Source of the DNA: Nitrospirota bacterium
Lineage (GTDB): Bacteria > Nitrospirota > UBA9217
Direction: 5' to 3'
Assembly: GCA_963741205.1 (NCBI GenBank)
Contig: CAVUHW010000040.1
Span: 1-43,234 of the forward strand
Length of the DNA: 43,234 nt
Shown: positions 1 through 13,268 of the stretch, one piece after another
Layout: each line of letters opens with the position of its first letter
Numbering within the stretch: the first letter of the stretch is position 1
Position numbers and translations under genes: made by a program
Notes under the pieces: generated by a model
Told to the model about the DNA's origin: nothing
What the model saw: only the letters and a program-made list of their open reading frames with translations
Database searches by the model: none

Positions 1-177
1 ACCTACTACTAAACAGGTTCGATAAGCAGCAACGCTGTTTTATTCGGCTTGAAGGTGTTGCCCAATATTTTCTGCCTTTGTGCACCCTCACAATCTCATA
101 AAATACAAATCCCCGTTTTTTTCATGCTCCCCGCCCTTCCGCTTATGAGAAACAAAGCGTGGCATGATTCATGGCTT

Positions 178-2677
<2,500 letters not shown>

Positions 2678-3051
2678 GATTAATCCTTGATCATGATATG
2701 TCGTACGCCGTAATTTTCTTTCCTCTTTAAACAATCTTCGGATGATTAAATTTTAGCGCATTATCTAACTGTTCGTGCTCGTCTACTCATAAACTACGTA
2801 TTTTTCGCGTCAACCAGCATGACGCCAATCCGGTGGCACTGAATTGAAATAACGTTGAAAACCGATACAATTACCACCGGCATAAGCAGCGTATCACTTC
2901 ACGCCTTCAGCACGAGGACTTTCCCGTATTCTATTGAGCCAACTGTTATTACCCCCGCTGTAATTGTCGTCTGCACCTGTTATTTGCTCATGGTTTTTAG
3001 CCAAAGTGCGTTCTTCCGGAGGACATTTTACCACTTATTTTTCCTCAAATC

Positions 3052-3065
3052 ATTTGTATTCAACT
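3052..3065. promoter_or_regulatory. Imperfect ATTTG-N4-CAAAT operator-like site (ATTTG TATT CAACT)
   Basis: One mismatch to the motif seen at five other promoters; lies next to a minus-strand extended -10 (TGGTAAAAT, ~3025-3033) pointing to copA. Confidence 0.5.
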
Positions 3066-3193
3066 TAATTCATCGCCTGTCCTGGCTTATTTCGTAGCAT
3101 ATCCTACACATGATTGCGTCAGTTGATTTATATTCTCTTTTTCATTGATACGGGAATATCATCTTTTCAATGAATTATCATGAATGGCATGGA

Positions 3194-3209
3194 TGGCATG
3201 GCAAATGCA
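3194..3209 (+). promoter_or_regulatory. sigma54 (-24/-12) promoter, copy 1
   Basis: TGGCATGGCAAATGCA = GG-N10-GC, conserved in the paralogous copy at 7529. IHF-like TTTCAATGAATTA at 3165-3177 just upstream. Confidence 0.75.
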
Positions 3210-3320
3210 CTATATATAAGCAAAACAACGAAAGAAGGAAACAAGAATTGTATCTTAGAAGATTAATTTTATTCAGTTGTAGAATTAAGATACTGAAGTA
3301 GCTAAAAAGAGGTGATCGAC

Positions 3321-3344
3321 ATGAAAAAGAAGTTTCCGCCGTAG
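3321..3344 (+). CDS. Putative leader peptide MKKKFPP*
   Basis: Strong SD (AAGAGGTG) upstream; conserved as MKKMFPP* in the second copy. Confidence 0.5.
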   Translation: MKKKFPP

Positions 3345-3416
3345 CAGGTTTCATGATGTCCTATTCCGAAGTGAACAGTTCCATTAAAAAATCTAAAAAA
3401 AGAAAGAGGTATTAAA

Positions 3417-3812
3417 ATGAAAAAGACAATATTATATGTGACAACGATGATGTTCGTCCTTGCTCTTGGAGTTTCCTATGCTGAGGCAGGCAGTAATTTC
3501 GGCAGTAATAAGGCTATCGCAAACACTAACTATGATATCGGTCCTGCAGATGTACCAGCTACGTCGATGGAAGTCACAAACGCCGGTGGGATACGATCGG
3601 TCGAACTAGGCATGGGATTGAATAACGCCGTTACGGACTTCAGCGGTAAGTCCTACGATTCGTTGGCGGACCTCAACGTAGCATCACTCGGTGAAAGACA
3701 GAGTGCAACCGCGGAAGGTTCACATGCCGGCGGGCTGCGATCAGTAGAGAATGGTATTGAGTCCTTTAACGGTGTTACCGACTTCACCGGAAGATCGTAC
3801 GATATCCTTTAG
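3417..3812 (+). CDS. Unknown secreted 131-aa protein with two internal AGG-x-RSVE...N(G/A)VTDF(S/T)G(K/R)SYD repeats (copy 1)
   Basis: SD AAGAGGT, Sec signal ending AEA, paralog at 7754..8149, downstream terminator. Confidence 0.9.
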   Translation: MKKTILYVTTMMFVLALGVSYAEAGSNFGSNKAIANTNYDIGPADVPATSMEVTNAGGIRSVELGMGLNNAVTDFSGKSYDSLADLNVASLGERQSATAEGSHAGGLRSVENGIESFNGVTDFTGRSYDIL

Positions 3813-3877
3813 ACGATCGACTAATAACTGACACCAGCAGAAGTATTAAAAATTTCTCGAGGCTACAGAAATCGAAC

Positions 3878-3910
3878 AAGAGCAGGCTGATTCACTGCCT
3901 GCTCTTTTAT
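3878..3910 (+). terminator. Rho-independent terminator
   Basis: AAGAGCAGGC...GCCTGCTCTT stem followed by T-rich tract. Confidence 0.75.
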
Positions 3911-4143
3911 TATAAATCAGAACCCTTCCGATGATGTTAGGGAAACACCCACCATGCACGGCCCAATGGTTAGTCATGTCATTGACCTAGATTATTAATT
4001 TAGTGATGATAAAATAATCCCTGATACAATCATGCATCCTCCGCACTTTAAGCAGTGCTTATACGGATTCGCCTATCCACGTAAATCCGTAGGTTACCTA
4101 CAGATTACGAAAAAAATATTATTATTCTAAATTCTGTCTCGTT

Positions 4144-5495
4144 CTATTTGAGCCCGAATTTAACCATCCGGTAGATGAGCGTCGGCCTCGTGATGCCCAG
4201 ATATTCCGCTGCGCGAGTCTGGTTGTGGCCGGTCTTCTCGAGGGCCTTGATAATCAGGTTTTTCTCCAGCGCCTCAAGATCGATCCCCTCCTCCGGAAGG
4301 TTCAGCAAGATGCTCTCGATGCTGTTTTTTTCTTTTTTAGCTTGTCCGGCAGGTCGTTCGGCGTCAAGACGTCTCCGCGTCTGAGTACCGACGCCCTCTC
4401 AATGACGCTTTCCAGTTCGCGGACGTTGCCGGGCCATCCATAGGACATCAGCACGTCAAGGGTTTCCTGCTGAACGCTGACGCCGGCATCCTTTGTGAAC
4501 TTCCTCAGAAAATGACTGACGAGGAGCGGGATGTCTTCCCGGCGCTCACGCAGGGGTGGCATGCGCAGGGCTATTACATTGATCCTATCGTAGAGATCCT
4601 CGCGGAACTTTCCTTCCCTGATCAACTGCTCAATGTCCCTGTTCGTTGAGGCGATGATTCGTACATCCACGTGTATGGATTTCGTGCCGCCGACCCGGTC
4701 GACGACCCTTTCCTGGAGGACCCTAAGAATTTTTGCTTGCAGATCGATGCGAAGGTCCCCGATCTCATCGAGGAGCAGCGTTCCTCCGTCTGCAAGCTCG
4801 AACTTGCCTTCCTTGTCCCTTACAGCGCCTGTAAAGGCTCCCTTCGCATGCCCGAAGAGCTCGCTCTCGATCAGGTTCTCGGGGATGGCGGCGCAGTTTA
4901 CCGCTATGAAGGGACCGTCGGTCCGATTGCTGTTGAAATGGACGCCTTTTGCGAGAAGTTCCTTACCCGTCCCCCTCTCCCCCGTGATCAGCACCGTCGC
5001 GTCGCTCGCGGCCACCCGCCCTGCCATGTCGAGCACTTCCCTGGTCTTGGCGCTGCTTCCCACGATACTCTCGAACCGGTACCGGTCGGTGACCACGGCG
5101 CGGAGCTCTACGTTCTCCTTCTCGAGCCGCCGCATCCGGAGCGCCTTATCGAGCGTCATTCGGAGCTCATCGCGGTTAAAAGGCTTGGTTATGTAATCGA
5201 AGGCGCCCTGCCTCATGGCCTCGACGGCGTTCTCGATCGTGCCGTAGGCCGTGATCATGATGACCGGCATACCCGGATCGCGCTCTCGGACCCTAGCCAG
5301 GACCTCCATGCCGTTCATTCCGGGCATGGTGATATCCGTGATCACCGCGTCGAAGGAGCTGTCCTCAAAGAGCCGCAGTCCTTCCTCGCCGCTCGCAGCG
5401 GTCCGCACGCGACTACCGGCCTCGGCTATGCTGAACTCGATGACCCGGCGCAGACTCTCGTCGTCGTCTATGAGGAGGATGGAGGATTTTTTCAT
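4144..5495 (-). CDS. sigma54-dependent NtrC/AtoC-family response regulator (REC + AAA+ + Fis HTH); frameshift in the poly-T run at ~4325-4340
   Basis: Receiver DD...D..MPG, GxxGTGKE, GAFTGA, LLDEIG, WPGNVREL. The HTH tail ALEKTGHNQTRAAEYLGITRPTLIYRMVKFGLK* is in another frame, ending at 4144. Confidence 0.93.
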
Positions 5496-5609
5496 ATTTG
5501 GATCAATGCAACCGCGCCTGCGCCCAGCGTTTACCTGTGCGATAGCGCAAGTGCAGCGTGTTGCTGTAATGAATGTACCGTCGAGGCGAGACGCGCTCCA
5601 TAAGTTTAC

Positions 5610-6713
5610 TCACACCGGTATCTTCACCGTAAAAGTCGCTCCCTTGCCCGGCTCGCTAGCGACATCGATCTTACCGTGGTGGTTCTCGACGATCCTGTAG
5701 GTAATCGCAAGTCCTAGGCCGGTGCCGTTTTTCTTGGTCGTAAAGAAGGGACTGAAGAGCTTCTTCCGGCCTTCTTCCGAGATGCCAACGCCGGTGTCGG
5801 TGATCACTACCACGATCATCCCGTCGCGGAGATCACTCGCGACCCTCAGCGTACCTCCCGTCGGCATTGCCTGGATGGCATTCAGCACCAGGTTCAGGAA
5901 CGCCTGCTTGAGCAGTCCTTCATCGAGGCTGCGCTTCCCGATTGACGGATCGAGCCGCTTCTCGACGTTCACGCCGGCTTTGCGCGCCTCCTGGGCCGTG
6001 AGCGTCAGCACCGCTTCGAGAGACTGGTTCACGTCGGACTGCTGATACTCGGGCTTCTTGGGCCGTGCAAACCCCAAAAACTCCTGCACGATGCAATTCA
6101 GCCGGTCCGTTTCCTTAAACAGTATCTGGATGAACTCGTACTTCGAGTCCTCGGGCGAATAGTCGTCCTTCAGGATCTCGACGGCGCCCTTGATTGCGCC
6201 CAGGGGATTTCTGATCTCGTGAGCCATACCTGCGGACAGCTCGCCAAGCGCAGAAAGCCGGTCGGCGCGTCGGAGCTGCTCTTCGGTCTGGAACAGGACG
6301 TCTGTCTGCTCTTTCAGTTTCCGGTGGGACTCGTCGAGACGGCGCATGGCCTCTTCATTTCGAATCCGCTGGCTGTGCTCCATCTCGCTTAATACGCCAG
6401 TGACGCCGCCGATCAGGAAAAACAGAAACAGTTCCACGTAGTTATAGACACTCAGAAAAGGGTCATGCCAGTGAAGGAATAGGTGCGGCGAAAAAAGTGC
6501 CGCCGATGCCATGGAAACCGACAGACCGCCCTTAGCTCCGTACCAATACGCCCCGAGGATGATCGGCACGATGTAGAGATGGCCGAGCAGGCCATGCAGT
6601 ATGCCCGCCGCCGAGATGCCCACGCTGTAATGGATGATCGAGATGAGCACAAGGAGCCCCGTAAGCATATACGCTCGGAAGCCCCTAATATGGCTGCGAG
6701 GTAATAAGATCAT
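5610..6713 (-). CDS. Sensor histidine kinase with His-rich membrane sensing domain
   Basis: H-box AHEIRNPL, N-box NLVLNAIQA, G-boxes DTGVG and GTGLGL; about four N-terminal TM segments containing several His. Confidence 0.93.
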   Translation of the reverse strand: MILLPRSHIRGFRAYMLTGLLVLISIIHYSVGISAAGILHGLLGHLYIVPIILGAYWYGAKGGLSVSMASAALFSPHLFLHWHDPFLSVYNYVELFLFFLIGGVTGVLSEMEHSQRIRNEEAMRRLDESHRKLKEQTDVLFQTEEQLRRADRLSALGELSAGMAHEIRNPLGAIKGAVEILKDDYSPEDSKYEFIQILFKETDRLNCIVQEFLGFARPKKPEYQQSDVNQSLEAVLTLTAQEARKAGVNVEKRLDPSIGKRSLDEGLLKQAFLNLVLNAIQAMPTGGTLRVASDLRDGMIVVVITDTGVGISEEGRKKLFSPFFTTKKNGTGLGLAITYRIVENHHGKIDVASEPGKGATFTVKIPV

Positions 6714-6851
6714 AAAGTGAATCCGAGGCCCTGAAAACGCGGTGCAGTATCCCCCTCTTGTCCAATTACAAAAGGAGCGATTTTATTTAAATAACACCAG
6801 AGACACAAACAATACCCCCCACTACTTGATCTGGTCTTTGGCGAAATATTG

Positions 6852-7067
6852 TCACTCTTCAATCCGATATCCGAGCTTCTCAATACTGTCCTTCGTGATC
6901 TTCGATAGCTTTTCCTCGTCAATCACTGCTTCGTTGAACTTTACGGCGATCTTCCCGTGCTCCACGTCTATGGAATCAACGCCATCCATCCCGCCGACGA
7001 ACCGTCTCAGTGCAAGCGAGCACTCACCGCATAGATTGTTGCTTACGTTAAATAGAGCTACTTTCAT
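6852..7067 (-). CDS. HMA-domain (CopZ-like) metal chaperone
   Basis: 71 aa, CGEC motif, DGV.SIDV, C-terminal IEKLGY typical of the HMA fold. Confidence 0.8.
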   Translation of the reverse strand: MKVALFNVSNNLCGECSLALRRFVGGMDGVDSIDVEHGKIAVKFNEAVIDEEKLSKITKDSIEKLGYRIEE

Positions 7068-7112
7068 CGGTTTTCCCCTCCACTCTCAACAACACTCAAT
7101 CTATTTTTTGCA

Positions 7113-7346
7113 TTATGATTTCATAATATCATCCTTCATCCGCTCGAAATCTTCTTTTGATATCTCGCCCTTGGCAAATCGTTTCTTCAAAATATCAATA
7201 GGTGTCTCGTTTGCATCTGTCCTCATGTAGCGACTGGTTATTGCCTGAACAATATACAAGAAACCTGCAATAATCAGCACCCCTAAGATGATCATGAAGA
7301 ACCATCCGAATCCCATACCCCATCCGTAATTACCCCAGCTCATCAT
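7113..7346 (-). CDS. SHOCT-domain small membrane protein
   Basis: GWGMGFGW + TM helix + ILKKRFAKGEISKEDFERMK (SHOCT signature); SD AGGAG. Confidence 0.88.
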   Translation of the reverse strand: MMSWGNYGWGMGFGWFFMIILGVLIIAGFLYIVQAITSRYMRTDANETPIDILKKRFAKGEISKEDFERMKDDIMKS

Positions 7347-7384
7347 GCCCTATCTCCTGTTCATTTAATATACCACTTTTGTCA

Positions 7385-7408
7385 TATTAATTTGCATACA
7401 AATTAATA
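7385..7408. promoter_or_regulatory. Perfect palindromic operator TATTAATTTG-CATA-CAAATTAATA
   Basis: 10-bp perfect inverted repeat with 4-bp spacer, overlapping the promoter region of the SHOCT-HMA-HK-RR unit. Confidence 0.75.
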
Positions 7409-7528
7409 CAACTCCCGCGTCGTTTATTTCGAAGCATATCCTACACCTGATTGTATCGTTCGACTCATCTTCTTTTTTTATTGCGACGGGGAATCCGTCT
7501 TTTCAATGAATTACGCGTATGATGCGGA

Positions 7529-7544
7529 TGGCATGGCATATGCA
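7529..7544 (+). promoter_or_regulatory. sigma54 (-24/-12) promoter, copy 2
   Basis: TGGCATGGCATATGCA = GG-N10-GC; IHF-like TTTCAATGAATTA at 7501-7513. Confidence 0.75.
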
Positions 7545-7652
7545 AAATACATTGGCATACAGCGAAAGAGAATATCGTAAATCTTATTTACGTGGATTTT
7601 TTATTAAACTGCCGAACGAAGATACTGAGATAGTAAAAAAGAGGTGATTAAT

Positions 7653-7676
7653 ATGAAAAAGATGTTTCCGCCGTAG
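7653..7676 (+). CDS. Putative leader peptide MKKMFPP*
   Basis: SD AAGAGGTG; paralog of 3321..3344. Confidence 0.5.
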   Translation: MKKMFPP

Positions 7677-7753
7677 AAGTTGTATAAGAACTTTGTCTTA
7701 AGAAAGATGTTCCATTTCAAAACTAAAATCTAATAAAAGAAAGAGGTGCTAAA

Positions 7754-8149
7754 ATGAAAAAGACAATATTATATGCGATAATGATGATGTTGGTCCTTGC
7801 TCTTGGAGTTGCCTATGCTGAGGCAGCCAGTAATTTCGGCAGTAATGAGGCGATCCCAAACACTAACTACGATATCGGCCCTGCAGATGTACCAGCCACT
7901 TTAGTGGAAGGCGCGAACGCCGGTGTGATACAATCGGCCGGACTAGGCATGGAATTGACTAATGGAGTTACGGACTTCAGCGGTAAGTCCTATGAATCGT
8001 TAGAGGACATCAGCGTGGCATCACTTGGTGAAAAACAGAGTGCAACGGCGGAAGGTTCACATGCCGGCGGTCTGCGATCGGTAGAGCCCGGCGTTGGATC
8101 CTTTAATGGTGTTACCGACTTCACCGGCAGATCGTATGATATCCTGTAG
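7754..8149 (+). CDS. Unknown secreted 131-aa repeat protein (copy 2)
   Basis: Colinear, same-length paralog of 3417..3812 with the same signal peptide and repeats. Confidence 0.9.
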   Translation: MKKTILYAIMMMLVLALGVAYAEAASNFGSNEAIPNTNYDIGPADVPATLVEGANAGVIQSAGLGMELTNGVTDFSGKSYESLEDISVASLGEKQSATAEGSHAGGLRSVEPGVGSFNGVTDFTGRSYDIL

Positions 8150-8207
8150 GTGATCGTTTAACATACTCCTGTGGAAATGCTGACGGGTCCTCGGGTTCAT
8201 TGGGAAC

Positions 8208-8245
8208 AATAGAAAGCGGGCTGTCACCAGCCCGCTTTCTATTTT
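8208..8245. terminator. Likely bidirectional Rho-independent terminator
   Basis: AATAGAAAGCGGGCTG-TCAC-CAGCCCGCTTTCTATT perfect stem between convergent genes. Confidence 0.8.
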
Positions 8246-8383
8246 AAGTGAGCAGCATCTGATAATGTCGGGAAACACTGCCCCTTGCGCAACCTCTCCT
8301 GCCGTTCTTCTTCGCTATTTCAGCATTGCCAGATACCGCATTGTTCCATTTGGTCTGCATTTAAACACAGTCCAGGAATCACT

Positions 8384-8835
8384 TCATTTCATCATTCCTT
8401 CCTTCATCTTCTTGCCTTTATCCATCATCATTTGGCCTTCTTTCATCATCATTTCTCCCTTTTTCATCATCGTGTCCTTGTTCATCTTGCCTTCCTTCAT
8501 CATCTTTCCGTTCTTCATCATCATCTTTCCAGCATTCATCATCTTGTCGTCCTTCATCATCTTGCCTTTATCCATCATCATTTCGCCTTCTTTCATCATC
8601 ATTTCGCCCTCTTTCATCATCGTGTCCTTATCCATCTTGCCTTCCTTCATCATTTTGCCCTTGTCCATCATCATTTGCCCCTTTTCCATCATCATATCGC
8701 CGTCATGTCGCCATGTTTCATCATCATATCTTTGTCCATCATCTTTTCTGCTGCCTGTACGAAATTGACCCCTATTGAGAGCATCAGGACTATGGTGGAG
8801 ACAATTACTGTAGCTAATACAAATATCTTTTTCAT
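8384..8835 (-). CDS. Secreted Met/Lys-rich low-complexity protein (MXKDX-like repeats); frameshift at ~8700
   Basis: SD AGGAGG, signal MKKIFVLATVIVSTIVLMLSIGVNFVQA, then MMDKDMMMKHGDM, then frame change into (GxMMMK/DK)n repeats. Confidence 0.85.
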
Positions 8836-9249
8836 GGTAAATCCTCCTTTTGTTATTTACGAATTCTAAGGTTTGGTTTTAAAAATATCCCATAGATATC
8901 TCGGGATATAACTCTTGCGACTTTATCGCACTGTTCCTGATAGGTCTTTACGCCGTAGACTATGCTCTCACCTCCCCTCTGTCGATTATTTTTAATTACC
9001 GCCCTATCAGAAATTGTATCGATAGATTCTATTTAGAATGCGCAATTTGCAAATCTCACTGAACACAACCTTATCTGCCAATGAACTGCTCCGGACCGGA
9101 GAGCACCGCGGCCTTGATCCCTTGATCCTGAGAACGCCGTGCTCCCCGATGACATGGCCGAACGTATTAAGAACCTGACGCAGTGAGCCCCTTCGATTTA
9201 AACGAAATCAGGGCATGTCCATCTCCTGATATCGCAACCCACAATCTCT

Positions 9250-10288
9250 TCAATCATGATAACCCAGTCTGTGACTCTCGATATCAATATAGGTGAGCAC
9301 ATCCTTAATTTCTTCTTTATTCAACCCCAGATTGGGCATCGGCAGATCGTGGTACTCGGCCAATAAGGCCTTGGCGATGGGGTCTTTCTCTCTCAACATC
9401 TTGTCCGGCTCGGCCATCCAGCGGGTGAGCCAGGCCCGGTCACGCTTGTGGGTCACACCCAACAGGTCCGGCCCTAAAGGCCGCTTCTCGGCACGTTCTG
9501 CAGCCGTCATCACCGATCGTGTGGCAGGAGGCACAGCGGGTTCTGAAAAGTTCTTCTCCTTTGGAGATGTTTCGCACCTCGGGGGCCTCTGCATAATCTC
9601 TTTTCTCTTTTGGCGGCATCTTCCAGTTCTGCAACCAACTGCCTAACTGCGTGGCTAGGACGTAGGGGTTTTCAAAGGGTGACAGCTTCATCCACTGCCC
9701 CGTTGCCTGATTGCCGACGATGAAACTCAGGTTGTGGTCCTTAATGTTGTCGCCCTCCTCTTCGCTGTACAGGCCGAGTTTCGTGCGGATCAGTTTGATG
9801 TCGGCGTCCTTCCCGGTCAGAAACAGCCAGCCCGGGCCGATCTGGAATCTTTTTGCGTATTTTCTTAGGACTTTCACGGTATCATGCTTCGGATCTATCG
9901 TGATTGAATACAGAAAAACATCGCGACCGACCCGGTCCCCCAGTATCCTCTGAACCTCGCGAAGTCTCGCCGTCTCGAGGGCGCAGGCATCCGGACAATT
10001 CGTATAAATGAAGTTGAGCGCTACAACCTTGCCTTTTATGACATCAGTAAAGAACCGGACCTTCTTTCCTTCATGGGTGGTGAGTTGGACATCGGGGAAG
10101 TAGTCCGCGCCCCACATCGATCCGCCCGTTTCGTCGGCAATGGCGGGGCCCGCCGGGAAAATCACAATAGCTCCGATGAGCAATAATATGGCAGTAACTG
10201 CATGGATCGAGTTGCCGGTGTAATTTTTGCATAATTTCTCCCAAAATTCCCCTCCTCCCATCCCTCTCCCGCAGGGTAAGAGCTGCAT
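9250..10288 (-). CDS. SCO1/SenC copper chaperone fused to a monoheme cytochrome c; frameshift at ~9490-9510; start codon uncertain
   Basis: FIYTNCPDAC (CxxxC), SITIDP.HDT, conserved His; then CASCHTIG and, in the next frame, GPDLLGVT...W...MPNLGL. Confidence 0.88.
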
Positions 10289-10341
10289 TTGCAGCCACTC
10301 TGAGTGGATGGGTTGAGAAGGATGATGTTCCTAGTATACAC

Positions 10342-10369
10342 AAAAAAAAGGGGCCGTTTTTCGGCCCCT
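10342..10369 (-). terminator. Rho-independent terminator after the multicopper oxidase
   Basis: GGGGCCG/CGGCCCC stem next to an A8 run on the + strand. Confidence 0.65.
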
Positions 10370-10384
10370 CGCGATCAGTTGCCG

Positions 10385-13268
10385 CTAGGGAATAGAAGCT
10401 TGAACTGCAGGCCCGACCCCGTCGCCCGTCCTGAAGGTGGGGAGTGCTGCGGAGTCCACAAATTCTACCCCTTCCCACGTCGGCATGGGCGCAGGCATCA
10501 GCTTGAGCTGTCCTGGATGCTCGATGTCCCAGCGAAGCAGCATGGAGTGGTCCTCGTGCTGAGTATTGTGGCAGTGCTCCATGTAGGTCCCGTGAAACTC
10601 CCTGAAATGGATGGCGATCTCGACGCCATTGGTGTCATCGCCCAAGGGGCCTATCCGGTAGATGTCCTTGCGGGCATATTTTTCCCACAGGGGCGGCTCT
10701 TTCCCTCCGCGCGTCAGGATGACGCCTTCTTCAAAATGGACGTGGACCGGATGGGTCCAGCCTTGGCCGCCGTTCACAATATGCCATATCTCGAGTGTAC
10801 CATCCCCACTGAAACCCGCTTTCGTAGGACCGGTGGCGAGTTGAGGCGCGGCCGAGATCCGCCTGGGATCCATACCGAAGTCCGCCTCCCCGTCAGTTTT
10901 GATGGTCCACCGGGTCTGGTCCGTGGGGTTCGAGCGGGCGAATTCGAAGGTGCGGTGCCGCGCCTTCGCTATCTTTGCCAGATCGATCGGGTCATCACGA
11001 TGGATGGGAAGCGTGATCATTACTTTCCCTCCCGGTTCGAATCTCGTCGGGTCCATGGAGAGGTCTGTGCCGGAATACGGGAATACCCGGAATTCCAGGA
11101 ACCTACCGACACACGGGTCTCCTCCGACCCAGCGAAGCGGTACGCCGTTTGCGTCAAGCTCCATCCGGGCTTTGTATCTCTCGGACAGAATATCCGCAAG
11201 CGGGATCTTCCGATTCGGGCCCTTGCCGGTCGAATGTTCGAGCACATTGACGAAGTAAAGCTTATCGCCGGGCTTGATGCCGTATTTCGCGAAGTCGACG
11301 ATGATATCGTAGCGTTCGCGCAAGGCGGCCCAGTTCCGGCAGAATGGCGTTATGGTCGGCGTCCATTCTTGAGTCAAAGGCGATCGCGTGCTCCATGATA
11401 TTGCCGTCATTGGCGATCATATGGAATGGCACCCTGTTGTAGGAGACCCCGGAGTCCGGAGGTCCCGGCATCTCGCCGCCATCCCCCTTTATCTGATGTA
11501 CCAGCCCGATTGCGAAGAAGCGCGACGTCGAGGCGTCCAGAATACGGAAGCGATAGCGTCGGGCGCGAACGTTAAAGTAGGGGTGCCACAGCAGGTTGGT
11601 CGTGATCTCGTCGCCCACGAACCCGTCGAGGTTGAAGATATTGAACCACAGCTGGCCTTCCCGGTCCCAAGCCTTGTCCATGATGAAAAGGTTCACGTCA
11701 TAGTCGCGGTTCCCCCATGGCAGCGCCGTGCCGCTCGGGAAGCGAAGGTTGATTCCGTCGTCGAACGCTTCATTGCCCCGGTCTAGCGCGCTGTAGTAGT
11801 TCATCTTGGCGGCGTTGCCCTTGTATACGTTCTGGGCCGTGAAATCGAACATGTGGTCATGGAACCAGTGGGAGCTCATCGTCTCCCTCCAGTCGCCGCG
11901 GATCTTGATGGAGCCGTTTTCGCAGGTCTTCGGGTTCGGCTTGCCGTCGTTTACAAAGAGCGTTTCGCCGGGCGAACACGGAAATGCGGCCCGGGGATCG
12001 CTCGCGTCGGTGTTGATGCTGTCGTAGCCCGCCAGCTGGATCGGCCAGCGATAGTCATAGAACTCCCCCGGGAAGAAGAACGCATTGGTGAAGCCGTCGC
12101 TTTCACCCGGGGAGTGGCCGTTGTGCTCGTGGGTCGTGATCGTGTGCAGCCCGAAGCCGCGGTTCGCCGTCGGGTCAATGGGGAGCGCGTTGTGATGGCG
12201 GAAAGGATCGGCTCTCCATAGCGCACCATCGAGCAGCTTGGGCGGAAGCGTCCCGTCCAAGGTCCACATGGTCTTGTGGTTCTGAACAGGCATCAGCGGG
12301 TGGAATCGGAACGCGACGCCTTTCGTGGTCCCTACGAGCTTGGGCGCGCCCGGGACCGAGGATTCGTAGACCGTGTGATAAAGGCCTCCCGGTCCGAACT
12401 CACCGAGTGCGTACCCATGCCTCTGCAGACTGTCGCGCAAACCGGTGTTCGTGCGTGCGCCCGCAATGGCCGTTTGGGCAAATACTTGAGGAGTGAACTC
12501 GTTCCAACGCTGATGGGCCCAGCCTTCCCCCGGAGGTCGGCCTTCGGCTGGGGCTGTGGCAAGCGGCCTTCCAAGGAAGGCCTCAATGTCCCCTTTCCAC
12601 GGGTTTTGATCTCCGGTATCGGAGAACCTTGTGGGAAAAGGCGCAAGGCCTTTCTGCGAGAGAAAGGCATCCAAATCAGCCCCCGATGGGCCGCTCGCGA
12701 AAATGCTAGCCGGATCCTGCTCTGGCCCGGGTCCGATAGAAGGCATTGGAAACGGCATTGTCGGCAAAGGAGAGGACGGATCGAGCGGCTCGGTACCCAG
12801 CTCCTCGGCTCTCATCATCTGTTGGGTGAAATCCTGGGCGCCAAACAGCGGGCTCGGCCTGCCGTTGGTAGGGATGTTCAACGCCAGCAGTTGCGCCTTT
12901 TGGACTACATTGTTGATGCCCTCGTCTTTGAAGGTCCCTGATGGACCTCCCACGAAGGCCCCCTGATTTGCCGGAGGAAGCGTGGCGAGCAGATCACGGG
13001 CAAACTGCAGCCCGATGAAAGGCCCGATGAACGCGGTCGGATCTCCCGCCGGCGGCGGAGCAAAGCAGTCCAGTACCCCAGGTGGCGGGACGACGCAGGC
13101 GCCGATCGCCATGCTTCTTATTTTGGGGTCTGTCACCGGGCCTTGCGGAGACGATGTTCCGCCACTGCATCCCCACAAAGTTATAAGCAAACCACTGAGC
13201 ATTACACCGATAAAGAATCGATCGAATTTCTTTATCGGATTAGCTGACGCTATATTTATTTTTAACAT
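10385..13268 (-). CDS. Large lipoprotein multicopper oxidase; frameshifts at ~12205-12230 (compensating pair) and ~11330
   Basis: Lipobox LWGC; copper motifs THEHNGH, HWFHDH, HPVHVH, HCHNTQHEDHSM across the two ORFs. Confidence 0.92.

Follow-up and report, generated by a model that had tools for sequence, protein, structure and literature searches.

A leader mini-ORF behind a strong Shine-Dalgarno sequence in sigma-54-type leaders of a Nitrospirota secreted-protein family, a candidate ribosome-parking element

What keeps a reading frame of only seven codons nearly unchanged in two leaders that have otherwise drifted apart? The question is raised by a 43,234-nucleotide (nt) stretch of DNA from a Nitrospirota bacterium (contig CAVUHW010000040.1; the whole stretch is called the window here). 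In it, two paralogous genes for secreted repeat proteins, copies A and B, each carry a mini open reading frame (mini-ORF) behind a Shine-Dalgarno sequence (SD), between a sigma-54-type promoter and the main start codon. Comparison of homologous loci indicates that the seven-codon frame is a genuine, conserved leader mini-cistron in the sigma-54-type leaders of this one Nitrospirota protein family. The same comparison indicates what selection has kept: a very strong SD, a 4-nt spacer, an AUG with AAR as the usual next codon, a stop after three or seven codons, and a position 50–89 nt before the main gene, but not the peptide. By analogy with known leaders we suggest, at a probability of about 0.4, that a ribosome parked on this long AU-rich leader shields the mRNA from 5′-end-dependent RNases or feeds the main start.

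The mini-ORF in the window and among its homologues

Both 24-base frames, first pointed out in a sequence-only reading of the window, are present letter for letter at 3321–3344 and 7653–7676. They are the sole matches in the 4.27-Mb assembly when up to two mismatches are allowed, and a reversed control gives none. AAGAGGTGAT precedes each frame (3307–3316 and 7639–7648) with a spacer of 4 nt, and the stop codon lies 72 nt before the main ATG in copy A (ATG at 3417) and 77 nt before it in copy B (ATG at 7754). The mini-ORFs are found ~110 nt downstream of TGGCATGGCA[A/T]ATGCA (3194–3209; 7529–7544), whose GG and GC elements have a spacing that we take to match the −24/−12 consensus of sigma-54 promoters. 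The genome encodes rpoN (209 bits), and an activator gene is located nearby (4302–5495). Transcription is predicted to start near 3220 in copy A and near 7555 in copy B. The assembly contains frame breaks (in RNase J and in the activator tail, see below), so homopolymer lengths, including that of the A5 run in the mini-ORF, are to be taken with caution; the run is the same in both copies.

The 16S rRNA gene of this genome ends in ...GGATCACCTCCTTTCT, and the SD of mini-ORF A pairs nine contiguous bases with this tail. As a reference, pairing with this tail was scored at 2996 long ORFs, each represented by the best among at most four candidate starts; the duplex energies have a median of −8.0, a 5th percentile of −14.0 and a 1st percentile of −16.6 kcal/mol. 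The mini-ORF SD reaches −16.5 kcal/mol in copy A (top 1.1%), −14.4 kcal/mol in copy B (top 4.2%) and −18.2 kcal/mol in a third paralogue of the same genome (locus L005), against −10.8, −12.9 and −12.7 kcal/mol for the respective main genes. The mini-ORF SDs of this genome are within the top 0.1–4.2% of the 2996 starts and exceed the main SD in three of three loci; the main-gene SDs are within the top 9–22%.

Copies A and B are identical at 45 of 77 positions in the leader before the element and at 21 of 39 after it. Identity is 10/10 in AAGATACTGA just upstream, 13/13 in the SD block, 1/4 in the spacer between SD and ATG, and 23/24 in the mini-ORF. The coding sequences share 345 of 396 positions, and 12 of 55 four-fold sites differ. 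SD and mini-ORF together form an island with 36 of 37 bases identical in a leader that is otherwise ~57% identical, so the description of a nearly invariant element between diverged flanks was correct. At the leader divergence of 0.43, the probability of at most one difference in 24 bases is 2.5e-5, which survives correction for ~183 windows. At the four-fold-site divergence of 0.22 it is 0.02, which fails this correction; the A/B comparison alone is therefore only suggestive. None of the seven third positions of the mini-ORF is changed (P of 0.18 or 0.02, according to the neutral rate assumed). The island by itself could have arisen by gene conversion, and the case for the element rests on comparison with other loci.

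The sequence-only reading proposed to look for the frame upstream of homologues, and in form it is found there: a mini-ORF with a strong SD stands at the matching place in five branches of the family tree. In L005, whose protein is 36% identical, the sequence is AAAAGAGGTGATTAAC ATG AAA ATA TTT TGT CCA TCG TGA, a frame of seven codons 80 nt before the main ATG; this locus adjoins another sigma-54 activator gene. Its metagenome counterpart, L019, encodes MKIIGPS-stop where L005 has MKIFCPS. In a locus from another genus (L027), a sigma-54-type promoter is followed by AAAAAGAGGTGATGCATT ATG ATC GGA CTG ATC CAT TGG TAA, which encodes MIGLIHW in seven codons and lies 50 nt before the main ATG. More distant sigma-54-type subfamilies have three-codon forms: MKR-stop (L033, L038, L042), MNP-stop (L063) and MKL-stop (L032, L059). 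Locus L041 keeps GGAGGTGAATC and is missing the start codon. Six kinds of peptide occur across the lineages: MKK[KM]FPP, MKI[FI][CG]PS, MIGLIHW, MKR, MKL and MNP.

The frame around these peptides is far more regular. In 11 of 12 loci the SD is followed by an ATG and a short ORF. The spacer between SD and ATG is 4 nt in 10 of the 11 mini-ORFs and 5 nt in the other, and nine have AAA or AAG right after the ATG. The identity of the stop codon varies (TAG, TGA or TAA) while its position is kept, with an in-frame stop within seven codons in 11/11. From this stop to the main ATG there are 50–89 nt in all 11 loci having the ORF, which always ends before the main SD. SD, spacer, ATG and early stop are kept between proteins that are only ~30–40% identical.

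This regularity bears on whether the frame is translated at all. The purine-rich block might instead bind a protein or a small RNA, or act purely as a 30S-binding site of the STAB-SD kind, the frame being incidental. Such a block would fit L041, which retains its SD-like sequence with no start, and the substitutions inside the ORFs, which are mostly non-synonymous; an SD alone suffices in the LEE4 and STAB-SD cases, as far as the excerpts of PMC8708949 and PMC3997798 describe them. The fixed 4-nt distance to an ATG, the stop within seven codons in every mini-ORF and the keeping of stop position through changes of stop codon argue the other way, and make an untranslated block quite improbable. 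The early stop lends only modest support here, because the chance of an ORF of seven codons or fewer is ~0.48 per lineage at this base composition.

The counts were made on ten loci that match a sigma-54-type promoter expression within 330 nt, a set chosen to avoid circularity (window copies A and B, L027, L032, L059, L033, L038, L041, L042 and L063). Expected counts are sums of per-locus rates over 1000 mononucleotide shuffles of each leader; for the observed counts, L059 was read separately. A mini-ORF no longer than 10 codons, with an SD–anti-SD energy of −14 kcal/mol or lower, is seen in 7 of the 10, against 0.12 expected, and at −12 kcal/mol or lower in 8, against 0.45; the loci are related (about five lineages), so these counts overstate independence. 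An ATG-led ORF of three or seven codons is present at the matching place in 9/10. L005 and L019 were left out because no promoter there matched the expression; with both added, the figures become 9/12 against 0.18 and 10/12 against 0.62. The control consists of 25 family loci with no sigma-54-type match (sigma-70-type), of which none has such a mini-ORF at −12 kcal/mol or lower and one has it at −9 kcal/mol or lower. Left out of the control were the duplicate L008, the broken L012, near signal-peptide-only matches (L035, L039, L043–L049), L054 (a sigma-54-like match 459 nt upstream), L016 (only 68 nt of upstream sequence), and L061 and L062, whose starts are uncertain.

A scan of 64 genomes of the lineage for promoter, gap, GRGGTGRW, 3–7 nt and ATG gave seven sites with a long gap and eight distinct sites with a short gap (15 in all), and none in reversed controls. 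The eight matches that open mini-ORFs all precede this secreted repeat-protein family, and the other seven open ordinary ORFs of 39 residues or more. Within the present genome (G000), the strong-SD pattern has 26 matches, and the only three seven-codon ORFs among them are those of copy A, copy B and L005. The genome has 47 sigma-54-like promoter matches, and a strong-SD mini-ORF follows only the two in the window; thus the mini-ORF is not a general sigma-54 trait. One other sigma-54-like match is followed by an eight-codon ORF that ends 3 nt before a gene start. In a tree of 28 proteins of the family, built by maximum likelihood, five changes of the sigma-54-type label are needed, at least three of them forced by well-supported branches, and sigma-54-type loci stand on both sides of the deepest split (100/100 support).

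The sequence-only reading also considered that the frame could be a decayed duplicate of the main start. A functionless relic of this kind would be alike in A and B through recent duplication or gene conversion. The SD and ATGAAAAAGA do resemble the main gene's own start region, and the A/B identity is not significant after correction at the four-fold-site divergence. An element found in five tree-separated lineages with such distant proteins, at 7/10 observed against 0.12 expected and at 0/25 in sigma-70-type relatives, is very hard to see as a relic, and that explanation is rejected. Origin of the mini-ORF by duplication of a start region is possible.

Possible roles of the mini-ORF

The first proposal for a role was a regulatory leader working through an arrest peptide or translational attenuator. 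The notion of a regulatory leader gains from the recurrence of the mini-ORF upstream of homologues, but the mechanism does not match what is conserved. A stall at Pro-Pro-stop, regulated by elongation factor P (EF-P), proline, release factor or a small molecule, would control downstream expression. Phe-Pro-Pro-stop is identical in both copies, nucleotides included, proline is at position 6 also in L005 and L019, L063 ends in Pro-stop, and a C-terminal proline slows termination. However, Pro-Pro is limited to the two window copies, the peptide is not kept across lineages, and some of the ORFs have three codons.

The leaders also lack the parts that such a sensor would work with. No terminator-like site and no sigma-70-like promoter site occurs in them between promoter and gene. 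Their folding is no better than that of shuffled sequences (z of +1.56 and +0.37), the alifold consensus, of four pairs at −1.8 kcal/mol, gives no conserved structure, and there is no stable fold and no hairpin sequestering the ribosome-binding site (RBS). Rfam over L001, L002 and L005 gave nothing at gathering score; the best match (E of 0.098) lies in another part of the locus, to a model for an archaeal snoRNA. Leader GC content is 0.30–0.31 (0.31 for copy A) against 0.56 for the genome, with A 0.43, C 0.12, G 0.19 and T 0.26. The spacer has no C-rich stretch and would thus be a poor Rho-loading site. A ribosome terminating 72–77 nt upstream cannot reach the main RBS. Among the proline codons of E. 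coli, CCG is the fastest, and F-PPP pauses only to an intermediate degree (PMC8129111). An arrest-peptide sensor is accordingly improbable, and attenuation of this type is not sustained; a lineage-specific pause at Pro-Pro-stop is possible.

A strong SD, a start and an immediate exit, placed mid-leader and too distant from the main gene to allow coupling or occlusion, give the mini-ORF the anatomy of the LEE4 protective mini-ORF. The SD has strong complementarity to the 3′ end of the genome's own 16S rRNA, is well upstream of the main start, and serves only ORFs of three or seven codons that do not overlap the main RBS. Independence from the peptide is seen by comparison between loci, where six peptides occur behind a kept SD, spacer and ATG. 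The leader is long, AU-rich and unstructured, and genes for RNase E/G and RNase J are both present. The RNase J match consists of four pieces summing ~566 bits (G000:C10:7274–8922, minus strand). The pieces are consecutive and in different frames, none with internal stops, which suggests indel errors in the assembly.

We infer from this anatomy that the mini-ORF is translated and that a ribosome sitting on it would act as a roadblock, shielding the downstream leader and the main start from scanning by RNase E and from 5′–3′ digestion by RNase J. Each rare, activator-dependent transcript would then live longer, and ribosomes might also be handed on from the mini-ORF to the main start. In E. coli, a six-codon upstream open reading frame (uORF) with ribosomes bound hinders scanning by RNase E in proportion to the strength of its SD; the brief stay of the ribosome limits this protection, which is raised when ribosomes are locked in place, as described in the excerpt of PMC9943677. 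This limit by ribosome persistence provides a rationale for a slow Pro-Pro-stop ending: in the window copies it could delay ribosome exit and improve the roadblock, as a local tuning of dwell time.

Several points weigh against this protective role. The SD of L059 is weak and L041 has no start codon. The compared loci are relatives from about five lineages, and the energy thresholds were set after the data had been seen. With good SDs of their own, the main genes have no obvious need of a helper. A roadblock that is independent of sequence does not need the near-identity of codons 5–7 and stop between A and B, which may come from gene conversion or an extra constraint. Since CCG is fast and F-PPP intermediate in E. 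coli, CCG-CCG is not obviously a maximised stall. The element is ~100 nt from the predicted 5′ end in A and B, which would leave the leader unshielded over its first half. Translation, ribosome occupancy and the effect on half-life are proposed from sequence alone, and RNase E scanning and the behaviour of RNases in this phylum are assumed from other bacteria.

Ribosomes that end on the mini-ORF might instead stay on the A-rich spacer and re-initiate at the main SD, making the mini-ORF a loader and not a shield. The strong SD and the AAR second codon in 9 of 11 mini-ORFs would suit such a hand-over, as would the unstructured, A-rich spacer and an ORF that always ends before the main SD, 50–89 nt from the main ATG. 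Precedents are uORFs of S. meliloti (PMC13285730) and the axe-txe minigene (PMC8708949). Nevertheless the 50–89-nt gap is far beyond known coupled pairs, the main SDs are strong already, and L041 keeps the SD alone. We regard hand-over as the main function as rather doubtful.

The opposite effect has also to be weighed. As a decoy or brake, or through peptidyl-tRNA drop-off or ribosome-dependent cleavage, the mini-ORF would lower translation of the main gene and keep the stress protein low until induction. In this genome the upstream SD is indeed stronger than the main one at each of the three loci. A negative action is possible for very short ORFs, for example the ycbK minigenes and baxL/argL in the excerpt of PMC8708949, and Rae1 is reported to cleave upstream of stalled ribosomes in B. 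subtilis (PMC12407103). The known negative cases, however, overlap or abut the main RBS, unlike the gap of 50–89 nt here. Ribosome supply would not normally be limiting in cis at such a distance, and the element is kept with a tightly off sigma-54 promoter, which would already prevent leaky expression. A negative element is unlikely on these grounds.

The protective role can be carried one step further, to an old and co-inherited partner of sigma-54 promoters: a parking module, independent of its peptide, that would make rare activator-gated transcripts long-lived, with Pro-Pro-stop as an answer to the persistence limit. This extension is speculative and we think it unlikely. If true, Pro-Pro-stop would tie mRNA lifetime to the speed of termination, and so to the status of EF-P or release factors under stress. 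Within a limited literature collection, no report was found that joins sigma-54 leaders, a uORF and a Shine-Dalgarno sequence.

The surrounding locus and the protein family

The features of the window that bear on the mini-ORFs are collected in Table 1.

Table 1. Positions of the mini-ORFs and associated features in the window
Feature	Sequence	Position	Strand	Remark
Mini-ORF A	ATGAAAAAGAAGTTTCCGCCGTAG	3321..3344	+	ATG AAA AAG AAG TTT CCG CCG TAG = MKKKFPP-stop
Mini-ORF B	ATGAAAAAGATGTTTCCGCCGTAG	7653..7676	+	ATG AAA AAG ATG TTT CCG CCG TAG = MKKMFPP-stop
Upstream SD of mini-ORF A	AAGAGGTGATC	3307..3317	+	
Upstream SD of mini-ORF B	AAGAGGTGAT	7639..7648	+	
A-rich 72-nt spacer, copy A		3345..3416	+	holds main SD AAAGAGGT at 3403–3410
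A-rich 77-nt spacer, copy B		7677..7753	+	holds main SD AAAGAGGTG at 7740–7748
Invariant block, copy A	AAGATACTGA	3287..3296	+	just 5′ of mini-ORF SD
Invariant block, copy B	AAGATACTGA	7619..7628	+	just 5′ of mini-ORF SD
Sigma-54-type promoter, copy A	TGGCATGGCAAATGCA	3194..3209	+	15/16 identical to copy B
Sigma-54-type promoter, copy B	TGGCATGGCATATGCA	7529..7544	+	
UAS-like imperfect inverted repeat, copy A	GTAGCATATCCTACAC	3094..3109	.	~85 nt upstream of promoter A
UAS-like site, copy B	GAAGCATATCCTACAC	7431..7446	.	
Sigma-54-dependent response regulator (receiver + AAA+)		4302..5495	-	Pfam; between copies A and B
Sensor histidine kinase		5610..6713	-	Pfam; same operon as response regulator
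Main gene A, secreted repeat protein, 131 residues		3417..3812	+	signal peptide, NG[VI]TDF..AGGLR repeats
Main gene B, paralogue		7754..8149	+	79% amino-acid identity to A

Upstream of the promoters, the motif ATATCCTACAC is an imperfect inverted repeat in the window (3094–3109 and 7431–7446), resembling an upstream activator sequence (UAS), and the block 3094–3117 around it is identical at 21 of 24 positions between the copies. L027 retains a UAS-like GCATATCCTACA, and L022 has a perfect palindrome, GTGTAGGATATCCTACAC, about 170 nt upstream of its gene. The repeat is probably the binding site of the regulator. Between this site and the sigma-54-type promoter, TCTTTTCAATGAATTA is conserved in both copies (3161–3178; 7497–7513); it could be a site for a DNA-bending protein. 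The invariant block AAGATACTGA was not seen in L005, L019 or L027.

The best NCBIfam matches of the response regulator are AtoC, NtrC and ZraR, and those of the histidine kinase are AtoS and ZraS, all of them under cut-off. The response regulator ORF ends after a lysine run, and its helix-turn-helix tail (MLNLPEEG...GITRPTLIYRMVKFGLK) lies in another frame at 4144–4308. The break (4144–4320, minus strand) looks like a frameshift in a homopolymer, which may be genuine or an error of the assembly. The surrounding genes make up a copper and envelope-stress island, with a P-type ATPase carrying heavy-metal-binding domains, an SCO1 protein and multicopper-oxidase-like proteins. Within it (143–13268), the two secreted-protein genes flank the ZraS/ZraR-like (AtoS/AtoC-like) two-component operon, a layout that resembles zraP-zraSR. 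A role as periplasmic stress proteins of this ZraS/ZraR-like system is conceivable for the repeat proteins.

Behind their signal peptide, proteins of the family carry two or three repeats of NG[VI]TDF[ST]G[RK]SYD ... AGGLR. The 131-residue protein has no Pfam or NCBIfam family match, and a protein Atlas search for it gave weak leads only (best score 0.82; PcoE 0.76). The family is rare: a search of 5.8 billion protein clusters gave seven matches. It does not extend beyond one family-rank lineage, which is the whole class among the genomes searched (64 genomes). At E ≤ 1e-6 it is present in 16 of 63 genomes of this lineage, and none of 337 other genomes of the phylum has it. P0003 and P0004, the closest homologues, are 65% identical and are encoded on contigs of ~1 kb. 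A metagenome scan gave six further loci and a genome-collection scan one. The in-frame stops flagged inside several homologues are their true ends, after NGITVF.

In L005 (1198–1420) and L019 (1200–1419), the seven codons are also the in-frame tail of a 37-residue Cys-containing ORF (MSNVI.HECGKY.YGDMSVIRPCCGKEVIN...) with its own SD. No other copy of this ORF was found in the genome or in the collected loci. It is preceded by a Cys-rich ORF of 35–43 residues that resembles G000 C4:20597–20662 (64% over 22 residues) and whose Cys motif we take to be radical-SAM-like. This upstream part was treated as a lineage-specific insertion and may be a gene fragment that was captured. L005 has two copies of a promoter-leader module, CTGGCATCGT..TTG[AT]AAT then GATCCTGGGAGGTG.CGTATTAATAAC.GGA (~1000–1100 and ~2290–2400), ahead of the third paralogue and of a 146-residue secreted protein, with another SD-like GGGAGGTG near a putative start.

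In a soil metatranscriptome (X1; contigs only, word share 0.06), contigs at least 85% alike cover ~7636–7824 and 3645–3877, and two contigs from a relative diverge from the window upstream of 7636; such contigs cannot give start, strand or expression, and they are not counted as evidence.

Comparison with known systems

The TnaC, SecM, Erm and Cat leaders resemble the window in having a short leader ORF, and TnaC has a proline beside the stop. Those leaders combine a conserved peptide with a switch (terminator, Rho site or RBS-sequestering hairpin); no such part was found in the present leaders, and the peptide varies. Neither a conserved arrest peptide nor a downstream switch controlled by a stalled ribosome was seen. 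The comparison carries a warning that a conserved Pro-Pro uORF is not to be read as an arrest peptide from a single genome.

In coupled or occluding uORFs, the stop or the upstream RBS overlaps or abuts the main RBS, whereas 50–89 nt intervene in the 11 loci here. S. meliloti uORFs that raise downstream expression are documented in the excerpt of PMC13285730. There, an SD and start codon in the 5′ leader affect the downstream gene, as is proposed for the window, but in the cases that the excerpt describes they act when overlapping or close to the main RBS.

The STAB-SD of Bacillus thuringiensis cry3Aa is located at −125 (PMC12970973, excerpt), and a STAB-SD needs no start codon according to the part of the review PMC3997798 at hand. 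It was also reported that the strong hbs SD of B. subtilis blocks RNase J1 (PMC5737220, excerpt). These elements are similar to the present one: each is an SD-like sequence in a 5′ leader and shows extended complementarity to 16S rRNA, and an RNase J gene is present here too. The window differs in the ATG and short ORF that stand beside the SD in 11 of 12 loci and in its phylum.

The engineered uORF obstacles of Richards and Belasco (PMC9943677), in which a six-codon uORF protects sites downstream of it, are synthetic constructs in E. coli.

The closest likeness is to LEE4 of enterohaemorrhagic E. coli (EHEC), whose long AU-rich leader holds a six-codon mini-ORF with a strong RBS (Lodato et al. 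2012, as summarised in the excerpt of PMC8708949). By the same excerpt, a ribosome on the SD protects the espADB mRNA from RNase E, and the peptide and its translation are dispensable. LEE4 and the window share a mini-ORF of 6–7 codons, a strong RBS and a long AU-rich leader, at a distance from the main start too large for coupling. In LEE4 the SD matters and not the peptide, which fits the pattern of conservation found here. The differences are that the window is from a member of the Nitrospirota and not an enterobacterium, that its mini-ORF would lie on a primary sigma-54 transcript and not on a processed operon mRNA, that the element occurs across a whole paralogous gene family in three- and seven-codon forms, and that its protective effect is a proposal.

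A few protective or regulatory mini-ORFs have been dissected, in enterobacteria and Firmicutes. Tied to a single promoter class and a single gene family, the present element offers a natural series on ribosome dwell and mRNA fate, with three-codon, seven-codon, SD-only and Pro-Pro-stop forms. The comparative record of this uncultured Nitrospirota lineage agrees with those experiments, in that SD strength, spacing and early stop are kept while the peptide is free to vary.

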